A DNA stretch of 64,000 nucleotides from Singulisphaera sp. GP187 (GCA_943328915.2 CALQBW020000004.1:379-64378); one strand, 5' to 3'. Positions 1-54,011 are shown, counted from the stretch's first letter. The notes: a model not told the origin generated them from the letters alone. Made by a program: numbers and translations.

Positions 1-574
1 AGTAATGAACTTAAATCACGGCTTCACGAAGATTGTATTACTCTCCTTAATATTTGTCAAACAAGAATTTAATACTTTCATAATTTTTATAAATTTATCT
101 TTCTTACGCTGAAAAACACATTTAATGAGTTGCACATAATCACCAAACATACTCAATAATTACTAAATTACCAGATTATATTGCACCAATTTTAATGAAA
201 TTCTTGGAATATTGGAGTAATATACTGAACAATCAGCGGATGCCATAATCCACCATAAACTATGTCCAGAAGCGCTATCCGCATATATCGTTATGTTCAC
301 TTTTATAGATACAATTTTGAGTCAACACTGACATTCGCGTCGCCCCCAACCAACCCGCCACTCACCCGTGTCACACGTAGGTTGGCCACACAAGGAATAG
401 TGGATAAAGAATCAGGACCGCATTCACCAAAACGATGTGACCCACCACAATCACTTGCTGTCGGAATCAGCCACGATTGCAACCCCAAAGAATTATTGCG
501 GAGTGGCTGGAGGCACACCACAGCCCGACGATCACGATACACACCATCTGCCAGTAGTGTTTTTTCGTGAACAC

Positions 575-1126
575 CTATCCCAATAATGCGGCATGCATCA
601 GGTCGTCACGCGGATGATCCGCAATGTTCCGACTATAATATGCCAATCTGAAATGACCCGTACGGTCAACCACAAACGTCCCCGGCATCTGCATCACATC
701 GCCCCCAATTGGTGCACCGCTCCCATACCCTTCAAGGGTAATTTTGACCGCCTCGATGGCAACTTGCGGCGCAAAAAAAGCCCCTATCCCCGCCCGACCC
801 AAGCCAAATTGCTCATAGGCCTGCTGATTTTGATCAATCATACACATGATATTAGGGGCGTATTGTTCCACAATAAACCGCGCCTCGACGGCATCACCCA
901 TGCCAACGGCCATCACGGTAACGTTGGGGGGAATTGTACGTTGGAAGCTGGCTAAACTAGCCAGTGTCTTGCGACAAAACGGTCAGCCAAAATGGCGTAA
1001 AAACGAAATCACTAATCCACCTTGTTGCCACGTCGTGTGCAATTCGTGCGTGACGCCATTGACATCGTTCATCGTCAACCGCGGTGCACTATCACCAACC
1101 TGCCACCGGACCTTTGTTACAGTCAT
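575..1126 (-). CDS. PRX-like2 / AhpC-TSA-type thioredoxin-fold protein with one in-frame TGA at the first redox-Cys position (candidate selenoprotein, motif U-P-F-C)
   Basis: Track ORF 575..916 (..GGDVMQMPGTFVVDRTGHFRLAYYSRNIADHP..) continues upstream in the same frame through TGA at 983..985 to ATG 1126, which has an SD-like GGAAAGGAA upstream. The N-terminus reads MTVTKVRWQVGDSAPRLTMNDVNGVTHELHTTWQQGGLVISFLRHFG[TGA]PFCRKTLASLASFQ. This family normally has G-C-x-x-C-R at that spot. Confidence 0.75.
948..964 (-). promoter_or_regulatory. SECIS-like hairpin 18 nt 3' of the in-frame TGA of the PRX-like gene
   Basis: Minus-strand RNA CUGGCUA-GUU-UAGCCAG forms a perfect 7-bp stem with a GUU apical loop. 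The architecture matches 50115..50131. Confidence 0.5.
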
Positions 1127-1230
1127 CACGTTGTTCCTTTCCAATGAGCGCAAAATCTACGTATGCAAATTTCAACTACTATTTGAAGTACGGATGGATT
1201 GCGTCAAAGGATGTATGATCCAATCCATCG

Positions 1231-3036: not shown

Positions 3037-3888
3037 ATGAAGACATATATCCAGGCAAGCGGGCTGGTGCGAATTTTCCGCAGCAGTTCAATTGAAACAT
3101 TTGCCTTGCAAGGACTTGACCTCAGCGTCACCAAAGGTGAAATGGTAGCGCTGGTTGGTCCTTCCGGTGCAGGGAAATCAACATTCCTCAATATGCTGGC
3201 AGCCCTTGACCGGCCTGATGCCGGAAATCTGCGCGTTGGCGACATCGATTTGGTAGCAGCCAGCGAACTAGTGCGCGCCCACTACCGTCGGTCGCTCGTT
3301 GGGTTTCTCTGGCAACAAACCACTCGAAATCTGATTGCAGGCTTAACTGTCCGCGAAAATATCGCACTGCCTGCGTTATTGGCTGGACACTCTTCGGTCA
3401 TTGCAGGCGATACAGCAGATGAATTATTAGCGGCAGTTGAAATGACACCATTTGCCGACAGCGACCCCTTGCGTTTGTCAGGGGGGCAACAACAGCGGGT
3501 CGCCTTGGCGACCGCATTGGCCTGTCGACCAACACTTCTGCTTGCCGACGAACCTACCGGTGAAGTCGATTGGAACACTGCCCAACGTATTTTGGAATTA
3601 TTCAACACGTTGCGCCAACAATATGCCATTACCATTGTGCTGGTGACGCACGACCCGCGCGTTGCAGAACGCGCCGACCGGACAATATCTATCCGCGATG
3701 GACGAACCAGCAGTGAAATTGGCCAAGATGATATCGAAACCGTCGTCGTAGATAGCGTCGGTCGCTTACAAATCCCGCTCGAAATTCGCCAACGACTCGG
3801 TATTGGGACACGTGCCACCGTCGAAATTGTCAATGGGGTCATCCAAATAAAACCTGTCCCTCTTACAAAGACTGCACCTAACATATGA
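3037..3888 (+). CDS. ABC transporter ATP-binding protein (MacB/LolD-like) with C-terminal SpoVT/AbrB-like tail
   Basis: Walker A GPSGAGKST, signature LSGGQQQRV and Walker [13 protein letters not shown]. The extra C-terminal segment GRLQIPLEIRQRLGIGTRATVEIVNGVIQIKP fits the AbrB/MazE swapped-hairpin pattern. Confidence 0.88.
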   Translation: MKTYIQASGLVRIFRSSSIETFALQGLDLSVTKGEMVALVGPSGAGKSTFLNMLAALDRPDAGNLRVGDIDLVAASELVRAHYRRSLVGFLWQQTTRNLIAGLTVRENIALPALLAGHSSVIAGDTADELLAAVEMTPFADSDPLRLSGGQQQRVALATALACRPTLLLADEPTGEVDWNTAQRILELFNTLRQQYAITIVLVTHDPRVAERADRTISIRDGRTSSEIGQDDIETVVVDSVGRLQIPLEIRQRLGIGTRATVEIVNGVIQIKPVPLTKTAPNI

Positions 3889-32519: not shown

Positions 32520-34274
32520 TTATTTGGCTTGTAGGCGGGCTAATTCGTCGACCGCAACACTTTCGTCGAGCTTTCGGAATAACGGTGCAGGGTCGCGCAA
32601 ACTAACCCCTGGCACTAATTCACTCATCTGCCAGCGCGCTGCAATGGCGTATTGGCCGGTCAACACCGGACGTTGGGCGCCATCGGGATCGAGTTCGTAT
32701 TCGATTTGCGGTTGGGGGGCAATTGCATCGTCATACCCCAGCATCTGGTGGAGTTTTTGACTTGCGTGGGGCATGATGGGTGAAAAGAGACGATTCAATG
32801 TGTCAATTACTTTGAGCGCTACAAAAATGACCGTAGCGGCGCGCTCACTATCAACCTTGACGACCTTCCATGGCTCTTGTTCACTCAAATACTGGTTGGC
32901 CGTCTGGGCAAGGGCCATCGTTTCTTGCAAGGCGCTACGTAGTTTCACCGCTTCATAGAGTTCTGTGACACACGCAAAGCCTTCCTCAATGGTATTGAGG
33001 AGCGTTGTATCTGCTCCTTTCAGTTCATGTGGCGTCGGCACACCGCCAAAGTTGCGTTGGGCGATGGTCAGCACGCGGTTCGCCAGATTGCCCCATGTAG
33101 CGACTAATTCGCTGTTGGTGCGTTGCACAAATTCGGTCCAGCTCCAGTTGCTATCACGGCCTTCGGGGGCAGCAGCCGTCAGATAATAGCGCACCAGATC
33201 AGGCTCGTAACGCGACATGATGTCGGGCATCCACAAGGCCCAGTTTTGGCTCGTGCTCATCTTTTGGCCTTCGAGATTGAGGAATTCGTTGGCGGGCACG
33301 TCGTACGGCAAGGCCCGATCACCATACCCCAGCAACATCGCTGGCCAGATGATGGTGTGGAAAGGAATATTGTCTTTGCCGATAAAGTAGTAGCTGCGCT
33401 GGGCACTGGCTGGATCCCACCATTTACGCCAGGCCTCGGGCTGGCCGGTGCGTTTAGCCCATTCGAGTGAAGCCGAATAGTAGCCGATTACCGCATCAAA
33501 CCATACATATATCCGCTTGTCGGCAAACCCGTCTACATTCCCTGGCACGGGTACGCCCCATTCGAGGTCGCGGGTGATGGCGCGACCGTGCAACCCTTCG
33601 CGGAGCCAGTTTTGAGTAAATTGCATGGTATTGGAGCGCCAATAATCACGGTTACTCGAATCGAGCCATGTACGCAGCGCCGGTTCGAGTTTTGCCAAAT
33701 CAATGAAAAAATGCTCCGTATCACGGAAAATTACCGGCGCGCCATCGAGCGTCGAGCGCGGTGAACCCAACTCCTTGGGGTCGCGCAACTGACCACATTT
33801 GTCACATTGGTCACCACGCGCCTTGGCATAATTACAGTTGGGACAGGTGCCTTCGACAAAGCGATCAGGTAGGAAGCGTTGCAACGATTCGCTATAGGAA
33901 CCGATAGCAATTTCACGGTAGATATAGCCTTTGGTTTGGAGCTTCTCAAAAATATCGGTGGTGGCCGCATAATGGTTGGTGGTGTAGGTCTGAGTAAACA
34001 AATCGAAGGTGATACCCATGGCGTGCAATGTTTCGATGAAGCTCTGATGGTAGCGATTGATGATGGTCTGAGGCGTCACGCCTTCTTTTTCGGCGGCTAA
34101 GGTGATGGGGGTACCATGACAATCCGACCCCGACACCATCAATACTTGGCGGCCACGCAAGCGTTGGTACCGTGCAAAGATGTCTGCTGGCAGGTAGGCT
34201 CCAGCCATGTGACCGACATGAAAAGGGCCGTTGGCATATGGCCATGCGACAGAAACGAGAATATGCTCAGACAT
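32520..34274 (-). CDS. metG: Methionine--tRNA ligase
   Basis: ..WPYANGPFHVGHMAG.. (HIGH-type), ..KMSTSQ.. (KMSKS-type) and zinc knuckle CPNC..CDKCG. 584 aa. Confidence 0.96.
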   Translation of the reverse strand: MSEHILVSVAWPYANGPFHVGHMAGAYLPADIFARYQRLRGRQVLMVSGSDCHGTPITLAAEKEGVTPQTIINRYHQSFIETLHAMGITFDLFTQTYTTNHYAATTDIFEKLQTKGYIYREIAIGSYSESLQRFLPDRFVEGTCPNCNYAKARGDQCDKCGQLRDPKELGSPRSTLDGAPVIFRDTEHFFIDLAKLEPALRTWLDSSNRDYWRSNTMQFTQNWLREGLHGRAITRDLEWGVPVPGNVDGFADKRIYVWFDAVIGYYSASLEWAKRTGQPEAWRKWWDPASAQRSYYFIGKDNIPFHTIIWPAMLLGYGDRALPYDVPANEFLNLEGQKMSTSQNWALWMPDIMSRYEPDLVRYYLTAAAPEGRDSNWSWTEFVQRTNSELVATWGNLANRVLTIAQRNFGGVPTPHELKGADTTLLNTIEEGFACVTELYEAVKLRSALQETMALAQTANQYLSEQEPWKVVKVDSERAATVIFVALKVIDTLNRLFSPIMPHASQKLHQMLGYDDAIAPQPQIEYELDPDGAQRPVLTGQYAIAARWQMSELVPGVSLRDPAPLFRKLDESVAVDELARLQAK

Positions 34275-41715: not shown

Positions 41716-42369
41716 ATGAGCGATATTCCTGATTTAGCCCTTCGTCACGAAGCCCTCACCCCACGCATCGCTACTGCCAAGCCACCACTTCTTGTATTGC
41801 TCCATGGTTATGGCAGCAATGAAGAAGATTTGCTGCAAATTGCACCGTATTTGCCCGACCAATTCCAAGTAGTAAGCTTGCGTGCACCATTCATGCTGAT
41901 GCCGGGCTCAAATGCATGGTTTGCCATCGAACACACCAACGATGGACTGATTTGCGACGTTACCCAAGCGCAACTATCCTTGGTGGTGCTCAATGAAAGT
42001 ATCGACCAAGCCATCTGCATTTATGGCACTGACCCCCACCAAACCTTCGTCGCTGGGTTTAGCCAAGGTGGGGCAATGGCAGGTTTGGTCGCGATGAGCC
42101 GTAACGATGTACGCGGCACCGTAATAATGAGCGGCATCAACCCATTCAAAGTGACTCCAAACTTGCCTACTACGCCATGTAATAGTGACATCCTGATCGT
42201 GCATGGTACAATCGACGAAGTCGTATCACTCATGGACGGCCAGGCCAGCCGTGATAGCTTGCTAGAGCTCGGTTTCGCTGTCAAGTACATCGAATTCCCG
42301 ATAGGTCATACCATCGATTTACGGGTAATTGGGGCACTCACTCGATTTTTGACCCAGAGATTGAAATGA
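41716..42369 (+). CDS. Alpha/beta hydrolase, phospholipase/carboxylesterase family
   Basis: ..LLHGYGSNEEDL.., nucleophile elbow GFSQGG and ..IVHGTIDEVV.. Confidence 0.8.
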   Translation: MSDIPDLALRHEALTPRIATAKPPLLVLLHGYGSNEEDLLQIAPYLPDQFQVVSLRAPFMLMPGSNAWFAIEHTNDGLICDVTQAQLSLVVLNESIDQAICIYGTDPHQTFVAGFSQGGAMAGLVAMSRNDVRGTVIMSGINPFKVTPNLPTTPCNSDILIVHGTIDEVVSLMDGQASRDSLLELGFAVKYIEFPIGHTIDLRVIGALTRFLTQRLK

Positions 42370-43289: not shown

Positions 43290-43353
43290 TTACGGCGGTG
43301 CCGTATTATGGTATTGGTAGCAATATCGCGTTCCTGTTGTGAAGGAAAAATAT

Positions 43354-44202
43354 ATGAATGCCACCGTTATCGCCCGCATGGATGGCGTCCGGAGCAGTGT
43401 TGAAGTCCTCGAATATCCAACCGTAAGTATATCGCGCCGCCCAGATTTGGCTGCTATCGCGTTTTATGCTCAACAAATGGGACTGCGCTTACGGCAAATA
43501 CGCATAACCCTCAATGACGGCAGTGCAATCATCGAACCCGGAATGTTGCAGTTTAGTCGGGGGAATATCACCACCAATACCAGCGCCGGCGGCGCATGGG
43601 GATTGATAAAACGTGTGATTGAGCGCCGTTTTAACAATGAATCGGTTTTTCGCACCACATTCCACGGTACCGGTGAAATTTACACCGAACCATCGTTCGA
43701 CCACTATCTACTGACTCGCATCCTACCAGATGAGGAAGCAATTGTTGACGATGGACGCTATCTTGCAAGTGAACAAGGTGTCGAAACCAGTCTCGCGTTC
43801 AAAAAAAATCTTTCAAGTTTGATTTTTAGCAAGGACGAAGTCGTTCGCACCCGCATTAACGGGAATGGTTGGTGTGTCGTGCAAAGCCCCATCCCCGCAA
43901 GTGACGTTTTGCGCGTCGATCTCAACAACGAAGAGTTGCGCGTCGACGGTGACATTGTGCTGTTGCGCAAAGGGGTGATGAGCCAGCAGGTTAGCAACGC
44001 GACAAATTCCGTGGTCGGTTTGGCTACTTCCGGTGAAGGTCTTGTGCAAGTATTCCGTGGCACTGGACAAGTGTGGTTAGCTCCCGCAGAACATGGCTAT
44101 AGTCAATTAATTGATTTACTCCAAGCTGCGTCGAACCCTGCACACACAAAACCGACCTTCCCCAATCGAAAAAAATCGTTACTGGAGGAAATGATTAAAT
44201 GA
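43354..44202 (+). CDS. AIM24 (DUF124) family protein
   Basis: ..GMLQFSRGNI..GAWGLIKRVI..ESVFRTTFHGTGEIY.. ..IVDDGRYLASEQGVE.. matches the AIM24 pattern by recall. Start moved to ATG 43354. Confidence 0.72.
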   Translation: MNATVIARMDGVRSSVEVLEYPTVSISRRPDLAAIAFYAQQMGLRLRQIRITLNDGSAIIEPGMLQFSRGNITTNTSAGGAWGLIKRVIERRFNNESVFRTTFHGTGEIYTEPSFDHYLLTRILPDEEAIVDDGRYLASEQGVETSLAFKKNLSSLIFSKDEVVRTRINGNGWCVVQSPIPASDVLRVDLNNEELRVDGDIVLLRKGVMSQQVSNATNSVVGLATSGEGLVQVFRGTGQVWLAPAEHGYSQLIDLLQAASNPAHTKPTFPNRKKSLLEEMIK

Positions 44203-47417: not shown

Positions 47418-49454
47418 GTGGACTATCTTGCAAACTTAAATGAAGATCAATATGCGGCAGTTGTGGCACCAATCGGACCAGTGCTAGTCAAAGCAGGTGC
47501 GGGCAGCGGCAAAACACGGGTATTGACGTTGCGCATCGCGCATCTCGTGAATCACCACAAAGTGGATGTCGGGCATATTTTGGCGTTGACATTTACCAAC
47601 AAAGCAGCCAAAGAGATGCGCCAACGGCTCAAACCAATTCTCGGGAGCAAAATCCAACGTTTGACAACGGGGACATTCCATGCCATTTGTGTCAAAATTT
47701 TGCGCCAGCACATCGAAGGCAAATTAGGGCATTACACCCGTAATTTCAGCATTTACAGTGGTGATGAACAAGAGCAACTTGCCCAGCAAAGTATAGATGC
47801 AGCACCAGAAGTATCACCGGAAGCAACAGACGTCAATGATTTATTACGGCGGATTTCGCGGGCAAAAAGTCGCTTACAAACCCCCAAAATGTTGCTCGCG
47901 ACAGCCGAAAACAGCAATGACAGCTGGATCGCCTTACGTTATCGTCACTATCAAGGCTTGTTGTCAGAATCAAACGCCGTTGACTTTGATGATTTGATAC
48001 AACTAGCCTATCGGTTGCTGAGTGAACACGAAGACGTGCTGGATGCGGTTCAAAAACAATGGCGTCATGTACTAGTCGATGAATACCAGGACACTGACCC
48101 GAGCCAATTTAGCTTGGTGCGCTTGCTGAGTGAGCCGGTCGGGGCACGGCCGCGTTCGTTGTTTGCCGTAGGCGATGCGATGCAGTCAATTTATGGATTC
48201 CGAAATGCTGATCACACAATTATTACGCGCTTCCAAGAGACATTTACCCAGGCAACGGTGATTGAACTCAAAACGAATTACCGTAGCCGCCAACCAATCC
48301 TCGATGCAGCATATGCAGTGATTCGGCATAGTAAATCAGTACCACCAATGCAACTAAATGCGAATAATCAGGCTCGTCAAATCGATAAAAGCGTGATATT
48401 TTAGCAATATCAGCACGCCAAAGAAGAAGCCCAAAAGATTGCCCACGAGATTGCGAGTATGACGAATAGCGCTGAGAACGTCGGTGCATTTGGTGATGTC
48501 AAACGTGAAGGCAGGCGCCCACGTGAAATTGCAATTTTGTACCGCTCGAAGTTTATGAGCCGTGCGTTTGAAGAAGCCTTGCGTTTGTTGCGCATCCCGT
48601 ACAAACTCAAAGGTCAATTAGGATTTTATGACCGGGCAGTGGTACGCGACTTACTGGCATTTGTGCGTTTGGCCGTCAATTCGCGGGATAATATGGCGTT
48701 GACGCGCATCGCCGACATCCCCAAACGAGGCTTGAGTGCCAAGCCACTCAAGGTTTTTAGTGTGGAAGCGGCGCGGCGGAATTTGGCTATTGCCGATGTA
48801 CTGGGCGACATCATGATTTTGGCACAACTCGACGAAAAAGCGCGCAGCGGCGCGCGCCAACTCTATCAGCTGCTCGGGCGGTTGCGACAGCGCATCAAGA
48901 ACAATATTGGGCCACGTGATTTACTAGAAGATATTTTGGTGCAAACCCAATACATGGCCTATCTAGAAGGTCTGCAGAGCAAAGATGCCGAAAAATTAAG
49001 TGATGCCAAAGAACACATCAATGAATTGATGCTCGTCGCAGACGATTACGATAGCGCTGAAGAATTTTTGCAGTTTATCGCAATAATGACCAGCAGCGAT
49101 GATGGAGACGACGAGCGGGATCAATTACAACTCCTCACAATCCATGCCGCCAAAGGTCTTGAGTGGCCATTGGTGTTTGTGGTAGGCCTGGAGGAAGGGG
49201 TATTGCCGCACGAACGGAGCATGTCGACGAATGAAGGAATCGAAGAAGAGCGTCGGTTGTGCTATGTCGCGGTGACGCGGGCGGCCGAGCGTTTGTATTT
49301 ATCGTGGTGCGCGGAACGGAGTGGCAGCAGTAGCAGCCGTACTCCCAAAAAGAACGTCAAAGGCGCATCGGCACAGACCAAACGTTCACGATTTTATGAT
49401 GACATCGAAGCCTACGGCCAAGAGCTCGCTGCTCGGCGAAATACCCAACAATAG
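47418..49454 (+). pseudogene. UvrD/PcrA/Rep-family DNA helicase, frame interrupted by a single in-frame TAG (48402..48404)
   Basis: Track ORFs 47418..48404 and 48459..49454 are in the same frame. The first carries motifs AGAGSGKT, TFTNKAAKEM, VDEYQDT and VGDAMQSIYGFRNA. Read-through gives ..DKSVIF*QYQHAKEEAQKIAHEI.. then ..AILYRS.., ..TIHAAKGLEW.., ..YVAVTRA.. Confidence 0.85.
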
Positions 49455-49911: not shown

Positions 49912-50268
49912 TCATCGACAAATCTCAATCACTGCCTGGGTAAGTTGCGCTTCATTGGGGACGCCGTTGAAACGCGTGGTTACGCTACCAGCACGGTCAA
50001 TAACCACAACGACAGGGTGGGCTTTGACGCCGTATTGTTGGGCAAGTTGTAATCCATCAGGAGTGGCATAATTGGCGCGTACAACAGTCAGACAACCAGT
50101 AAATTGTTGGTCCAGCCTATCAACGATAGGCATTGTTTGGGTTCAGGGGATTCAGCCGTTGGTATAAACAAATAGTACGGCGGGTCCATCCAACACGTTG
50201 GTTGGGGCAACACCACAGCCCATCAAGAGACTTGTGGCAACTAATCCAAATACGGTACGTCGTTGCAT
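49912..50268 (-). CDS. Small thioredoxin-fold lipoprotein with two in-frame TGA codons replacing the CxxC pair (candidate U-I-P-U selenoprotein)
   Basis: The same frame runs from ATG 50268 through TGA 50152..50154 and TGA 50143..50145 to the stop at 49912. It reads MQRRTVFGLVATSLLMGC|GVAPTNVLDGPAVLFVYTNG[TGA]IP[TGA]TQTMPIVDRLDQQF..YGVKAHPVVVVIDRAG.. Lipobox LMGC; cis-Pro region HP; thioredoxin layout. Confidence 0.7.
50115..50131 (-). promoter_or_regulatory. SECIS-like hairpin 11 nt / 20 nt 3' of the two in-frame TGA codons
   Basis: Minus-strand RNA GCCUAUC-GUU-GAUAGGC forms a perfect 7-bp stem with a GUU loop. Confidence 0.5.
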
Positions 50269-50350: not shown

Positions 50351-52627
50351 CTACTTTTGTTGTAAAACCTTCCACACCGTCTCATCGCGCAACGGCAAGT
50401 CAAGCACGCGTGCGCCGCTAGCGGCGCGAACGGCGTTGGCTACAGCGGCAGCACCGGCGGTGATGGGGGGTTCACCGATACCACGGGCACCAAAGGGACC
50501 GAAGGGGGCTTTGTTATGGACCATGACCACTTCGATATCGGGCAAGGCTTCGCCGCCGGGGAGGCTGTAGTCCATGAAGCTGGCGGTCAATAACTGACCG
50601 TAATCGTCATAGACCATCGCTTCGTGCAAGGCCCAACCGAGCCCTTGGGCCACACCACCATGGATTTGGCCTTCGACCAGCAACGGATTGAGGGCAAAGC
50701 CAACATCTTGGATGGCGAGGTACTTGAGGGGGGTCACATGGCCGGTATCGGGATCGACATGGACTTTGACGAGGTGGGTAACAAAACCAGGCGCATTCTC
50801 GGAGATGGCGGTGGTGCCTTCTCCCATGATAGGGCCACTACCGCCGGCTTTGTTTTCGGCCAATTCGGCAATCGCGCCGATTTCCATGGCTTTGTCGGGG
50901 AACCCTTTGACGCTCACCACACCGTCGCGCAATTCGAGGTCAGCGGGGTTTGCTTCAAATTGTTCGGCAGCCACATCGATGAGCTTTTGGCGCACGACAC
51001 GGGCTGCCGCGGCTACGGCACCCGACACACTATAGGTGGTTTGGCTACCACCACTGGGGCCGGCCCGGGGACCGGTGCGGGTATCGCCTTGGATGAGTTG
51101 GATGCGGTCGGGCGAGATGTCGAGGATTTCGGCGGCGACAAGCACCAACGAACTATTGACGCCCGAGATATCGACTGAGCCGACGTGGATGCGCACTGCG
51201 CCATCGCTGTCGACGGCACAAACCGAAGCGGCCGGCGACATACCACACAACCAACCGCCAGCAGCCATACCCCAGGCCGTGTTGGGCTCTTGGGTACGGT
51301 TTTGCCACCACGGGTGGTTCTGCAGGGTTTCGAGGCATTGGCGCATGCCGATACTGGGCCACGGGTCCCCGTTACCCATCAAATCACCGGTTTCGACACA
51401 GTTTTGCAGGCGCAATTCAAGGGGATCGCGACCGAGGGCGCGGGCCAGCTCGTCCATGCTTGATTCAATGGCAAAGGTGGCCGAAGGGGCACCGGGGGCA
51501 CGGTACGCTCCTCCTTGGAGTTTGTGGGTCAATACTTCGCGACAGAGTATTCGCACGTTGTCGCATTTGTAATAGCCGCCAATCAAAATCCCGACGATGC
51601 CACCAATGGTGAATGGGAAGACACCGTTGTCGATGGTGGCGACGGCATCGATGGCTGCGATGCGACCATCGTTGTAGGCTGCCACGGTTAAATCAATTTC
51701 CATGGCAGGTGAGGGAGTGGTGGTCAAAAAATCTTCGCTACGCGTCAACACAATTTTGACTGGATGGCGCACTGTCCACGCTACTGCAGCGGCCAAGGGG
51801 TCGAGTGTCCCGTATTTGGCACCAAATGCGCCACCTATCACCATCGGGATAACCCGCACTTTGGATTTGGGAATACCGATGAGTCGGGCGACTTCATCGC
51901 GCACACCAAATTGGCCTTGGGTGCTGGTATAAATGGTAATTTCACCACGAAACGGATGGGGCTCTGCCACCACCGCATGAGGCTCGATGTAGCCTTGGTG
52001 GACCATGGGGGTAGTGTAGTGGTGTTTGAGCACGATGTCGGCACCAGCAATGGCTTTGTCGACATTACCACGACCAAACTTGGTTTCTTCGTGGATGTTG
52101 GACGGGGCACGATGACTCGTGTCACTGCCTTTGTCGACGGCGGCGTGGGCTGCAGTCAAGTCGAGACCGTCTTTGGGCAGACCGTTAGGCCAAATCAGGG
52201 CTGCATTGGGGGCAATCGCATCAGCCATATTGCTCAATACGGGAAGGGGTTCGTAGTCTACGATTACTGCGTCGGCGCCATCTTTGGCAGCAGCTTCTGT
52301 TTCGGCGACGACCACCACGACGGGGTGACCGCGAAACAAAACTTTGTCGTGAGCCAATACCGCACTTGAACGCGAATTCACTACACGGTCACGAGTGGGC
52401 AAATCGGCGGCAATCAATACAGCCACCACGCCGGGGACAGCCATGGCGGCTGTGCGGTCAATGGATTTGATGTTTGCATGAGCATATGGGCTCAATACCG
52501 GGCGGGCATGCAACATGCCAGGCAAATTTAGGTCACCGGTGTATTGGGCTGTGCCAGTAATTTTTTCAGAGCCATCAATAATTTTGTGGCGTTTACCAAG
52601 GGTACGATATTCAGAACTCGTTGTCAT
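50351..52627 (-). CDS. Xanthine dehydrogenase/aldehyde oxidase family molybdopterin-binding large subunit
   Basis: Starts directly with the a/b-hammerhead region ..YRTLGKRHKIIDGSEKITGTAQYTGDLNLPGMLHA.. About 758 aa, with no 2Fe-2S or FAD domain. Start moved to ATG 52627 behind GAGGA. Confidence 0.9.
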   Translation of the reverse strand: MTTSSEYRTLGKRHKIIDGSEKITGTAQYTGDLNLPGMLHARPVLSPYAHANIKSIDRTAAMAVPGVVAVLIAADLPTRDRVVNSRSSAVLAHDKVLFRGHPVVVVVAETEAAAKDGADAVIVDYEPLPVLSNMADAIAPNAALIWPNGLPKDGLDLTAAHAAVDKGSDTSHRAPSNIHEETKFGRGNVDKAIAGADIVLKHHYTTPMVHQGYIEPHAVVAEPHPFRGEITIYTSTQGQFGVRDEVARLIGIPKSKVRVIPMVIGGAFGAKYGTLDPLAAAVAWTVRHPVKIVLTRSEDFLTTTPSPAMEIDLTVAAYNDGRIAAIDAVATIDNGVFPFTIGGIVGILIGGYYKCDNVRILCREVLTHKLQGGAYRAPGAPSATFAIESSMDELARALGRDPLELRLQNCVETGDLMGNGDPWPSIGMRQCLETLQNHPWWQNRTQEPNTAWGMAAGGWLCGMSPAASVCAVDSDGAVRIHVGSVDISGVNSSLVLVAAEILDISPDRIQLIQGDTRTGPRAGPSGGSQTTYSVSGAVAAAARVVRQKLIDVAAEQFEANPADLELRDGVVSVKGFPDKAMEIGAIAELAENKAGGSGPIMGEGTTAISENAPGFVTHLVKVHVDPDTGHVTPLKYLAIQDVGFALNPLLVEGQIHGGVAQGLGWALHEAMVYDDYGQLLTASFMDYSLPGGEALPDIEVVMVHNKAPFGPFGARGIGEPPITAGAAAVANAVRAASGARVLDLPLRDETVWKVLQQK

Positions 52628-52676
52628 GGTTGGCTTTTTCCTCAGTTTATACAAAAATAATCGCACACTATCTTTA

Positions 52677-54011
52677 TTATACAACGACGGGAGCTTCATT
52701 CCCTGCTTCGTTGATAGCACGACGCACATTCACAAAAATCAGCAAGAGAAAACCCACCACGAAGAATACCCCAATCATCGACAATGCCAATCGATACGAA
52801 TTGGTGAATTGATACACCAACCCAAAAACCAACGGCCCAATCCAACTCGTACCACGCTCACTGACTTCGTAGAGGCTGTAGTATTCTGATTCTTTGCCCT
52901 TGGGAATCATTTGGGCGAACAACGAGCGACTCAAGGCTTGCGTGCCACCCAGCACGACGGCAATGCCGGCACCAAGCAACAAGAACTGTACGACACTCCC
53001 TTTAACGATGAAATAACTGACCACCGTGAGTGATGTCCACACCACGAGACTAATCAAAATGGATTTTTTGGCACCAATACGGCGCGCCACCTGATTGAAC
53101 CCGAGTGCGCCAAACCAGGCCACAAACTGCACCATCAAAATGGTAATAATCAACGTTTGTGATTCCATACCGAGTTCTTGGGTACCAAAGGTCGACGACA
53201 TGGCGATGACGGTCTGGACGCCGTCGTTGTAAAGTAGGTATGCCCCAAGGAACAACAATGTTTGCGGATAACGCACCGAATTCCGGAGCGTCTCACCGAG
53301 CTGTGCGAAACCTGCCGTCACCACCGATTGCCCTTTTTGCAAATCATGTACTGCGGCGGTATTGGGCAAACTACGCAACGTGATAGGAATAAATATTGCC
53401 ATCCACACACCAGCCGATGCCAAACAAATCCGCACGGCCAAACCACCATCGATGCCGATTTGTTCGTACGACAAAAATAGCGCCAAATTGAGGATGAGCA
53501 ATAAGCCACCACCAAGGTAGCCAAAGGCAAAACCACGTGACGACACCGCGTCGCGCTCATCGGGGGTGGCGATTTCGGGAAGAAATGCATTGTAAAAGAC
53601 CATCGATGCGCCAAAGGTGAGGTTAGCCACCAAGTATAGGAGCCCCCCAAATAAATAGTCTGTGCCTTGCATGAAAAACATCAAAATGACCGCTACCGTC
53701 GAGATATACGCAAAAATCCCCATCATACGTCGTTTGAGCGACGTATAATCAGCGACTGCTCCCAAAATAGGTAAGACGAAGACCTGCAATAAGACCGACA
53801 AGGAGGTCACATAGGCATAAAATGAACCCGCAGCGATAGGAATGTTCGGCCCGAATGGAAACAACATGCCACCGGTATCTTTGGCGGCTGCCTCGGCAAT
53901 ACTGGTCAAATATGGTCCCAAAAAGACCGCACCGACGGTGGTGGAATAGGCAGACACTGCCCAGTCAAAAAAATACCAACCGCGTTGTTCGCGTGTCCCT
54001 TTAAACATCAC
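52677..54011 (-). CDS. MFS transporter, UMF1 (Atg22-like) family
   Basis: ..RGWYFFDWAVSAYSTTV.. N-terminal signature, 444 aa, about 12 TM segments. Confidence 0.85.
   Translation of the reverse strand: MMFKGTREQRGWYFFDWAVSAYSTTVGAVFLGPYLTSIAEAAAKDTGGMLFPFGPNIPIAAGSFYAYVTSLSVLLQVFVLPILGAVADYTSLKRRMMGIFAYISTVAVILMFFMQGTDYLFGGLLYLVANLTFGASMVFYNAFLPEIATPDERDAVSSRGFAFGYLGGGLLLILNLALFLSYEQIGIDGGLAVRICLASAGVWMAIFIPITLRSLPNTAAVHDLQKGQSVVTAGFAQLGETLRNSVRYPQTLLFLGAYLLYNDGVQTVIAMSSTFGTQELGMESQTLIITILMVQFVAWFGALGFNQVARRIGAKKSILISLVVWTSLTVVSYFIVKGSVVQFLLLGAGIAVVLGGTQALSRSLFAQMIPKGKESEYYSLYEVSERGTSWIGPLVFGLVYQFTNSYRLALSMIGVFFVVGFLLLIFVNVRRAINEAGNEAPVVV

Follow-up and report, generated by a model that had tools for sequence, protein, structure and literature searches.

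The window analysed here is a stretch of 64,000 nucleotides (nt) of DNA (GCA_943328915.2, CALQBW020000004.1:379-64378) from an uncultured Chloroflexia bacterium. On its minus strand, at 1126..575, lies a gene for a redox protein whose reading frame is interrupted once, by a TGA. This gene is a candidate selenoprotein gene, in which the TGA would be read as selenocysteine (Sec, one-letter code U) rather than as a stop. The features of the locus are as follows:

575..1126, minus strand: coding sequence of a SelL-related / PRX-like2 redox protein with a proposed Sec at codon 48, based on translation, family models and ortholog lengths.
983..985, minus strand: in-frame TGA, the proposed Sec codon (U48), first position of U-P-F-C; TGA in orthologs, TGC or TGT in distant homologs.
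974..976, minus strand: TGT encoding Cys51, second in the UxxC motif and its predicted resolving residue, invariant across all homologs.
948..964, minus strand: hairpin resembling a selenocysteine insertion sequence (SECIS), with a 7-bp stem CUGGCUA/UAGCCAG and a GUU loop, 18 nt past the UGA and with 25 nt from UGA to loop.
1134..1142, minus strand: Shine-Dalgarno-like GGAAAGGAA, ending 7 nt before the ATG; GGAAAGGAA is also found upstream of the ATG in a related contig, L004.
1178..1207, minus strand: weak sigma-70-like promoter match TTGACG-18-AATAGT, a candidate only.

Translation of 1126..575 from the ATG (1126..1124) to the TAG (577..575) gives 183 codons with a single internal stop, the TGA at 985..983, which is codon 48. 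The peptide around this codon reads GGLVISFLRHFG-[TGA]-PFCRKTLASLAS, with *PFCRKTLASL from the TGA on, giving the motif FLRHFG-U-PFC-R. The standard list of open reading frames (ORFs) contains only a 113-codon tail (916..575, minus strand, GTG start) and a 56-codon head (1153..983). A first reading of the locus, made without database searches and called here the sequence-only reading, had noted that the ORF track holds the C-terminal 113 residues only, that the frame is open upstream through one TGA (983..985) to an ATG at 1126 backed by a Shine-Dalgarno sequence, and that a perfect hairpin follows 18 nt past the TGA. These three statements are borne out by the ORF at 575..916, by the translation together with GGAAAGGAA at 1142..1134, and by a hairpin at 964..948 made of a 5′ arm CTGGCTA (964..958), a GTT loop (957..955) and a 3′ arm TAGCCAG (954..948). 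The candidate promoter has 9 of 12 matches and sits in the 149-nt divergent spacer common to the redox gene and ilvD; the number of such matches in this region is not above shuffle expectation.

For comparison with family models, Cys was written in place of the TGA codon. The 183-residue product matches the Pfam model AhpC-TSA above its cut-off over residues 10-158, with AhpC-TSA_2 and Redoxin also above their cut-offs, and it scores 124.6 bits against a cut-off of 120 with the NCBIfam model NF040769 ('SelL-related redox protein') over residues 13-173 of 183. Both AhpC-TSA and NF040769 cross the TGA, so that the complete AhpC/TSA-type N-terminus proposed upstream of the TGA is indeed present. 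Among solved structures, the one nearest in sequence is that of PRXL2B (prostamide/prostaglandin F synthase; PDB 9us9, E = 1.5e-8, residues 20-170), in which RRFGCVVCR aligns with RHFG-U-PFCR; a PRXL2B double mutant replacing exactly both Cys residues of the aligned motif has also been deposited (PDB 9usa). FG-U-P-F-C-R matches FGCPFC[RQK] of the homologs and FGCVVCR of PRXL2B and is thus the family redox motif at its conserved position. The same alignments confirm that the TGA takes the place of the first Cys of the family motif G-C-x-x-C-R.

From the Pfam matches and the homology to PDB sequences, the 183-residue product is predicted to adopt a thioredoxin fold. We take it to belong to cd02970 (PRX_like2), what was tested being the PRXL2B homology and the NF040769 match. 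No signal peptide was found in the 183-residue product. The peroxidatic motif PxxxTxxC/U, by which typical peroxiredoxin (Prx) selenoproteins are defined (PMC13188914), is absent: V-I-S-F-L-R-H-F-G precedes U48, in which position -3 holds His instead of the expected Thr and position -7 Ser instead of Pro. The protein is therefore not a canonical peroxiredoxin.

Relatives of the product were searched for among 5.8 billion proteins. All close relatives (75-90% identity) are called as C-terminal fragments of 102-123 residues, because their DNA carries TGA at that codon. Their DNA has TGA at codon 48 in every case, the same ATG, an equal length and a conserved stretch of 47 N-terminal residues. 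At 30-43% identity, relatives are complete, each being one polypeptide of 164-205 residues that carries FLR[HY]FGCPFC. Automated annotation had been expected to truncate the gene, and every copy examined (ENA, JGI, Logan and NCBI) is a C-terminal fragment that does not contain the active site; the copy in an NCBI metagenome-assembled genome (MAG) is named 'hypothetical protein'.

The TGA column separates these two groups. TGA is kept in all 11 distinct orthologous coding sequences, which come from MAGs and metagenomes of Roseiflexaceae/Chloroflexia at 75-90% identity; TGC or TGT stands at this position (FLRHFGCPFC) in about 108 distinct motif sequences of the Cys form, drawn from many phyla. 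The alignment of homologs proposed by the sequence-only reading as a check for Cys or Sec at this column thus returns Cys in the distant homologs and TGA in 11/11 close orthologs. In a scan of one genome per species, the TGA form was found in four MAG species representatives (three labelled 'Roseiflexaceae bacterium' and one 'uncultured Chloroflexi bacterium') and about 55 loci of other phyla all have TGC or TGT. A metagenome scan contributed another 78 Cys codons and three TGA loci, of which one is contig L004 itself. The scan patterns contained RHFGCPFC, and distant Sec forms may for this reason have been missed. In one MAG labelled Roseiflexaceae bacterium A0_36, the family is represented by a Cys form with TGC, at no more than 37% identity (L017, position 10142). 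It follows either that the change from Cys to Sec is restricted to a single clade of the Roseiflexaceae or that the two genes are paralogs.

Taken at face value, the public annotations suggest that the TGA terminates translation, giving a 47-residue peptide and a product of 112-113 residues started at the GTG or ATG at 916/913, in other words either a pair of small genes or an enzyme cut short. All public calls of the orthologs are indeed C-terminal fragments, here of 108-123 residues, with the 47-residue upstream ORF called separately. Nevertheless, the family domain runs straight across the TGA, the C-terminal fragment would be without the redox motif, and the Cys-form homologs are single polypeptides. 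The internal in-frame ATG lies 69 nt from the TGA, and nowhere is the gene better conserved than in the first 37 of these nt, which run through the hairpin. Altogether, we consider termination at this codon very unlikely.

Next to termination stands the possibility of a pseudogene with a nonsense mutation, or of a TGA that is a sequencing or assembly error. Gene decay does occur here, since the adjacent downstream gene is broken over three frames in the window and a UvrD-like helicase gene contains an in-frame TAG. At the redox gene, however, the ratio of nonsynonymous to synonymous substitution rates (dN/dS) among the orthologs amounts to 0.07-0.23 upstream of the TGA (codons 1-47) and to 0.08-0.17 downstream of it (codons 49-183), at synonymous rates (dS) of 0.4-2.6. 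Low dN/dS on both sides of the TGA means that both parts are translated and under purifying selection, which excludes a pseudogene; furthermore, the TGA is kept in 11 distinct sequences across this divergence, with equal lengths and no frameshifts. The 47 N-terminal codons, whose membership in the family had been named as a point to check, are spanned by both family models and fall under the same constraint (dN/dS 0.07-0.23). A misread TGC or TGT is likewise not supported: the 552-nt gene including the TGA is identical in two independent metagenome assemblies (L001 and L002), and a third contig (L003), which stops within the gene, still holds 901..1126 of the window with the TGA. Because independent assemblies carry the same TGA sequence, sequencing error is excluded, and a defective or misassembled gene is hardly conceivable.

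A genetic code in which UGA is generally sense can also be set aside. As the sequence-only reading had stated, TGA is an ordinary stop elsewhere in the window: 18 of 53 long ORFs (non-overlapping set) end in TGA, several of them in ATGA start/stop overlaps, and 3037..3888, 41716..42369 and 43339..44202 all do so. Reading TGA as sense yields only two plausible extended genes in 64 kb, both encoding thioredoxin-fold proteins and both with a hairpin. Beyond the in-frame TGAs themselves nothing speaks for an altered code; it is refuted by the ordinary stops, and we give it practically no credence.

We then considered the hairpin that follows codon 48. The model for bacterial SECIS elements (bSECIS) describes a loop of 3-9 nt on a stem of 4-16 bp, a distance of 16-37 nt from UGA to loop, a minimum free energy (MFE) of -7.5 kcal/mol or lower, and a G in the first two loop positions, mostly as G[G/U]N (PMC13188914). 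A SECIS prediction had been suggested for this region; we compared the hairpin by hand with these four published constraints and found it to agree with all of them. Its loop has 3 nt and its stem 7 bp, the UGA-to-loop distance is 25 nt, the loop is GUU in the window and GUU or GGU in relatives, and the hairpin alone folds at -8.4 kcal/mol (z = -3.9). For the 61 nt from the TGA on, the fold energy is -14.4 kcal/mol (z = -2.9). The comparison of fold energies downstream of the codon between Sec and Cys forms gave no usable contrast and is uninformative, because the Cys forms come from far more G+C-rich genomes.

Conservation of the hairpin is striking at the nucleotide level. The 11 orthologs share one and the same stem and have GUU or GGU as the loop, and the 45 nt from the TGA through the hairpin are nearly invariant, synonymous sites included: GGCTGACCGTTTTGTCGCAAGACACTGGCTAG[T/G]TTAGCCAG. 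Diversity at third codon positions is 0.16 in codons 45-63 compared to 0.39 in the rest of the gene. Among 165 windows of 19 codons, codons 45-63 rank second-lowest, the lowest one starting at codon 41 and overlapping them, and 0/20000 random codon sets reach a diversity as low. Synonymous variation suppressed in this way marks an RNA element superimposed on the coding sequence.

Hairpins of this kind are rare next to a TGA. The two strands of the window contain 2306 TGA trinucleotides, of which only 4 (three hairpins) have, 8-25 nt further on, a stem of 7 perfect base pairs whose loop begins with G[G/T]. Composition-preserving shuffles give a mean of 0.88 such sites per window, and by chance about 4e-4 such hairpins would be expected per TGA. 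When an open frame on both sides is also required, exactly two sites remain in 64 kb: the TGA of the redox gene and the TGA at 50154. The latter belongs to a second candidate selenoprotein gene, 49 kb from the first, which was found by reading TGA as sense and lies in an apparent intergenic gap. Its features are:

49912..50268, minus strand: second candidate selenoprotein gene of 118 codons, coding for a lipoprotein-type signal (LLMGC), a thioredoxin domain and U39-I-P-U42, and ending with an ordinary TGA.
50143..50154, minus strand: TGA-ATC-CCC-TGA, a proposed Sec-Ile-Pro-Sec motif with TGA codons at 50154..50152 and 50145..50143.
50115..50131, minus strand: SECIS-like hairpin GCCUAUC-GUU-GAUAGGC, 11 nt past the second UGA and 20 nt past the first.

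The second product matches Pfam Thioredoxin (PF00085) at 23.6 bits against a cut-off of 23.5, and in BLASTP it aligns with Escherichia coli TrxA (E = 7e-11), with CGPC of TrxA opposite U-I-P-U. The hairpin of this gene, like that of the redox gene, pairs perfectly over 7 bp and closes with a GUU loop (-8.2 kcal/mol, z = -4.9), and the distances from the two UGAs to the loop are 27 and 18 nt. All of its database relatives (79-99% identity) are called as fragments of 73-76 residues starting just past the second TGA. Seven distinct orthologous coding sequences keep both TGAs, with dN/dS of 0.04-0.23 on either side, and they keep the signal peptide and the hairpin as well, with one base-pair variant in contig L079. 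Two thioredoxin-fold genes with conserved TGAs at redox positions and the same small hairpin are hard to explain except by Sec decoding.

The second gene lies 82 nt downstream of a gene for a molybdopterin-binding subunit of the xanthine dehydrogenase family (50351..52729, minus strand; Ald_Xan_dh_C, MoCoBD_1/2), and this adjacency is kept in the contig of a relative (L081, 365..2641). A functional link between the UxxU thioredoxin and the molybdopterin-binding subunit is possible.

A third TGA-hairpin site was rejected. It has its TGA at 32966 on the plus strand, followed 15 nt on by CCTCAAT-GGT-ATTGAGG, and lies antisense within a 584-codon gene (32520..34274, minus strand). As about 1 such site per window is to be expected by chance, we dismiss it.

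Based on the conservation of the TGA and of the coding sequence around it, the ordinary TGA stops elsewhere and the second gene with TGA and hairpin, Sec insertion is supported over a pseudogene or a reassigned code, as the sequence-only reading had argued. We conclude that 1126..575 on the minus strand of this uncultured Chloroflexia bacterium is very probably a selenoprotein gene with Sec inserted at the TGA of codon 48.

Several observations weigh against this conclusion. All 7 stem pairs are invariant in the 11 orthologs, so that there is no compensatory covariation, and conservation is the sole support for the hairpin. In Rfam, the whole window matched no family at the gathering threshold, and at E <= 10 the region 850..1050 matched solely a meaningless Brucella small RNA model. 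The genes selA, selB and selD and the tRNA for Sec (tRNA-Sec), a search for which had been proposed across the genome, were not found by tblastn (with E. coli SelA, SelB and SelD as queries, the SelA sequence being exact against PDB 8uzw) and ARAGORN in the window and loci L001-L076, about 1.1 Mb; this is a tiny fraction of a genome, which makes the absence uninformative rather than negative. Furthermore, both cultured representatives of the Roseiflexaceae, a family within the Chloroflexia, namely Roseiflexus castenholzii and Roseiflexus sp. RS-1, are recorded as having none of SelD, SelA and SelB (Peng 2016, PMC5029168, Table S1).

The same table credits Chloroflexus aurantiacus, Oscillochloris trichoides and Herpetosiphon aurantiacus with SelD, SelA and SelB (PMC5029168). 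The Sec trait therefore exists in the Chloroflexia but is patchy. A profile search with SelA of E. coli and Aquifex listed 120 rows, of which the named ones were all Enterobacteria and the Aquifex query, with no SelA of Chloroflexia among them. Unusual structures of tRNA-Sec have been documented in Chloroflexi. From the two genes described here, we infer that selA, selB, selC and selD are present in this uncultured clade.

This leaves a little room for a UGA that is recoded, but not to Sec. Read-through could be promoted by the hairpin, with a near-cognate tRNA for Trp or Cys decoding the UGA; alternatively, SelB could deliver a tRNA-Sec-like tRNA charged with Cys. Residue 48 would then be Cys or Trp. 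SelB-dependent insertion of Cys by selC-like tRNAs has reportedly been described by Mukai and co-workers. In favour of such recoding, the Sec machinery was not located for the lineage in the window, in L001-L076 or by the SelA profile search, and cultured Roseiflexus have no SelD, SelA or SelB. On the other hand, both the loop sequence and the spacing of the hairpin agree with the SECIS model of SelB type, TGA exactly at the redox Cys of two different thioredoxin-fold genes is the classic signature of Sec, and a TGA with a hairpin brings no obvious gain over TGC if mere Cys is inserted. We regard recoding to another residue as unlikely. Slightly less likely still is its more specific form, a clade with no canonical sel genes in which UGA and a 17-nt hairpin with a G[G/U]U triloop drive SECIS-like recoding to a residue other than Sec in two unrelated genes.

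If Sec is inserted, the gene product would be a cytoplasmic, 183-residue PRX-like2 / SelL-related thioredoxin-fold oxidoreductase with U48-P-F-C51. When the ribosome reaches the UGA at 985..983, the hairpin at 964..948 would be positioned 18 nt downstream, inside the frame. By analogy with the established bacterial pathway, SelB-GTP-Sec-tRNA(Sec) would bind the hairpin and deliver Sec in place of termination, after which translation would run on to the TAG at 577..575. As in other members of the family, Sec48 would be the attacking nucleophile on the substrate, a peroxide or a disulfide, Cys51 would resolve the intermediate as a selenenylsulfide, and a thiol system would re-reduce the enzyme. 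The Sec form would have come about when Cys was replaced by Sec within a single clade of uncultured Roseiflexaceae/Chloroflexia, all other known homologs having kept Cys.

Catalogues from 2005-2008 onwards (PMC1794560, PMC2398784; also PMC13188914) list Prx-like thiol:disulfide oxidoreductases that contain Sec in a UxxC or UxxU motif. With these bacterial families of Zhang and Gladyshev the redox protein shares a predicted thioredoxin fold of AhpC/TSA type, Sec at the head of UxxC, an excess of Cys homologs and a putative SECIS within the ORF directly past the UGA. They have been reported above all in Deltaproteobacteria, Clostridia and marine metagenomes, whereas the gene described here belongs to the NF040769 subfamily and to uncultured Roseiflexaceae. 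A review table also contains a cd02970 (PRX_like2) peroxiredoxin-like selenoprotein with UxxS, for example MDX2448127.1 (PMC13188914). The PRX_like2 label and Sec at the first motif position are common to both, a likeness by label and not by sequence relatedness, but the motif there is UxxS and here UxxC with a resolving Cys.

SelL was called a Prx-like selenoprotein in the Global Ocean Sampling paper. The redox protein passes the NCBI model that carries the name of SelL, but it differs from eukaryotic SelL in its UxxC motif (TGT, 976..974) and in a hairpin of bacterial type inside the ORF. In aquatic organisms, SelL was reportedly described by Shchedrina et al. in 2007 with UxxU and a eukaryotic SECIS in the 3′ untranslated region. 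PRXL2B, whose FGCxxCR aligns with FG-U-PFCR, is a eukaryotic Cys enzyme of low overall identity, and its substrate specificity cannot be transferred to the redox protein.

Compared to the SECIS of the E. coli fdhF type, the putative element likewise is a stem-loop in the coding sequence just past the UGA, with a loop G followed by G or U and a spacing within 16-37 nt. It differs in being a bare, perfect hairpin of 17 nt with a 3-nt loop and no bulged U. The minimal SECIS of fdhF has a bulged U and a spacing of 11 nt.

In relatives (L004, L008, L013-L016 and L085), an intact, conserved gene of 127-131 codons follows 3-6 nt past the redox gene. It encodes a small protein with a hydrophobic N-terminal segment, two conserved Cys residues and the motifs WGRLECQ and QNCTYQ, for which a Pfam search gave no match; the protein may be a partner or substrate of the redox protein. 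In the window, the homologous region (~150..574, minus strand) is split over three reading frames with stops and looks like a decayed pseudogene of this neighbour, and at least 358..574 is identical in the second assembly, L002. Elsewhere in the window, the gene for the UvrD-like helicase (47418..49454, plus strand) has an in-frame TAG (48402..48404) leading to two ORFs of 328 and 331 codons in the same frame, with the UvrD-helicase N-terminal domain in the first half and UvrD_C in the second, the result of a nonsense mutation or a natural split. The contig of the last gene of the window ends about 1 kb further on and adds nothing.

Sec-containing Prx-like proteins with UxxC or UxxU, the cd02970 selenoprotein with UxxS and the 'SelL-related redox protein' model are thus already known, and neither gene changes the knowledge of how selenoproteins work. 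New are the host lineage, the truncation of every copy examined, the minimal hairpin shared by the two genes and the companion UxxU lipoprotein thioredoxin. For annotation, a systematic error is corrected, as the examined database copies of both genes are C-terminal fragments devoid of the active site. The very small hairpin of both genes (7 bp, G[G/U]U triloop, 11-20 nt spacing) could serve as a lineage-specific SECIS model.

In the literature searched, we found no report of selenoproteins from Roseiflexaceae. Our analysis adds two probable selenoprotein genes, one for a cytoplasmic UxxC protein and one for a UxxU lipoprotein, to this family, whose cultured members are recorded as devoid of selenium-utilisation genes. 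Accordingly, the Sec trait would be patchier in the Chloroflexia than cultured genomes suggest.

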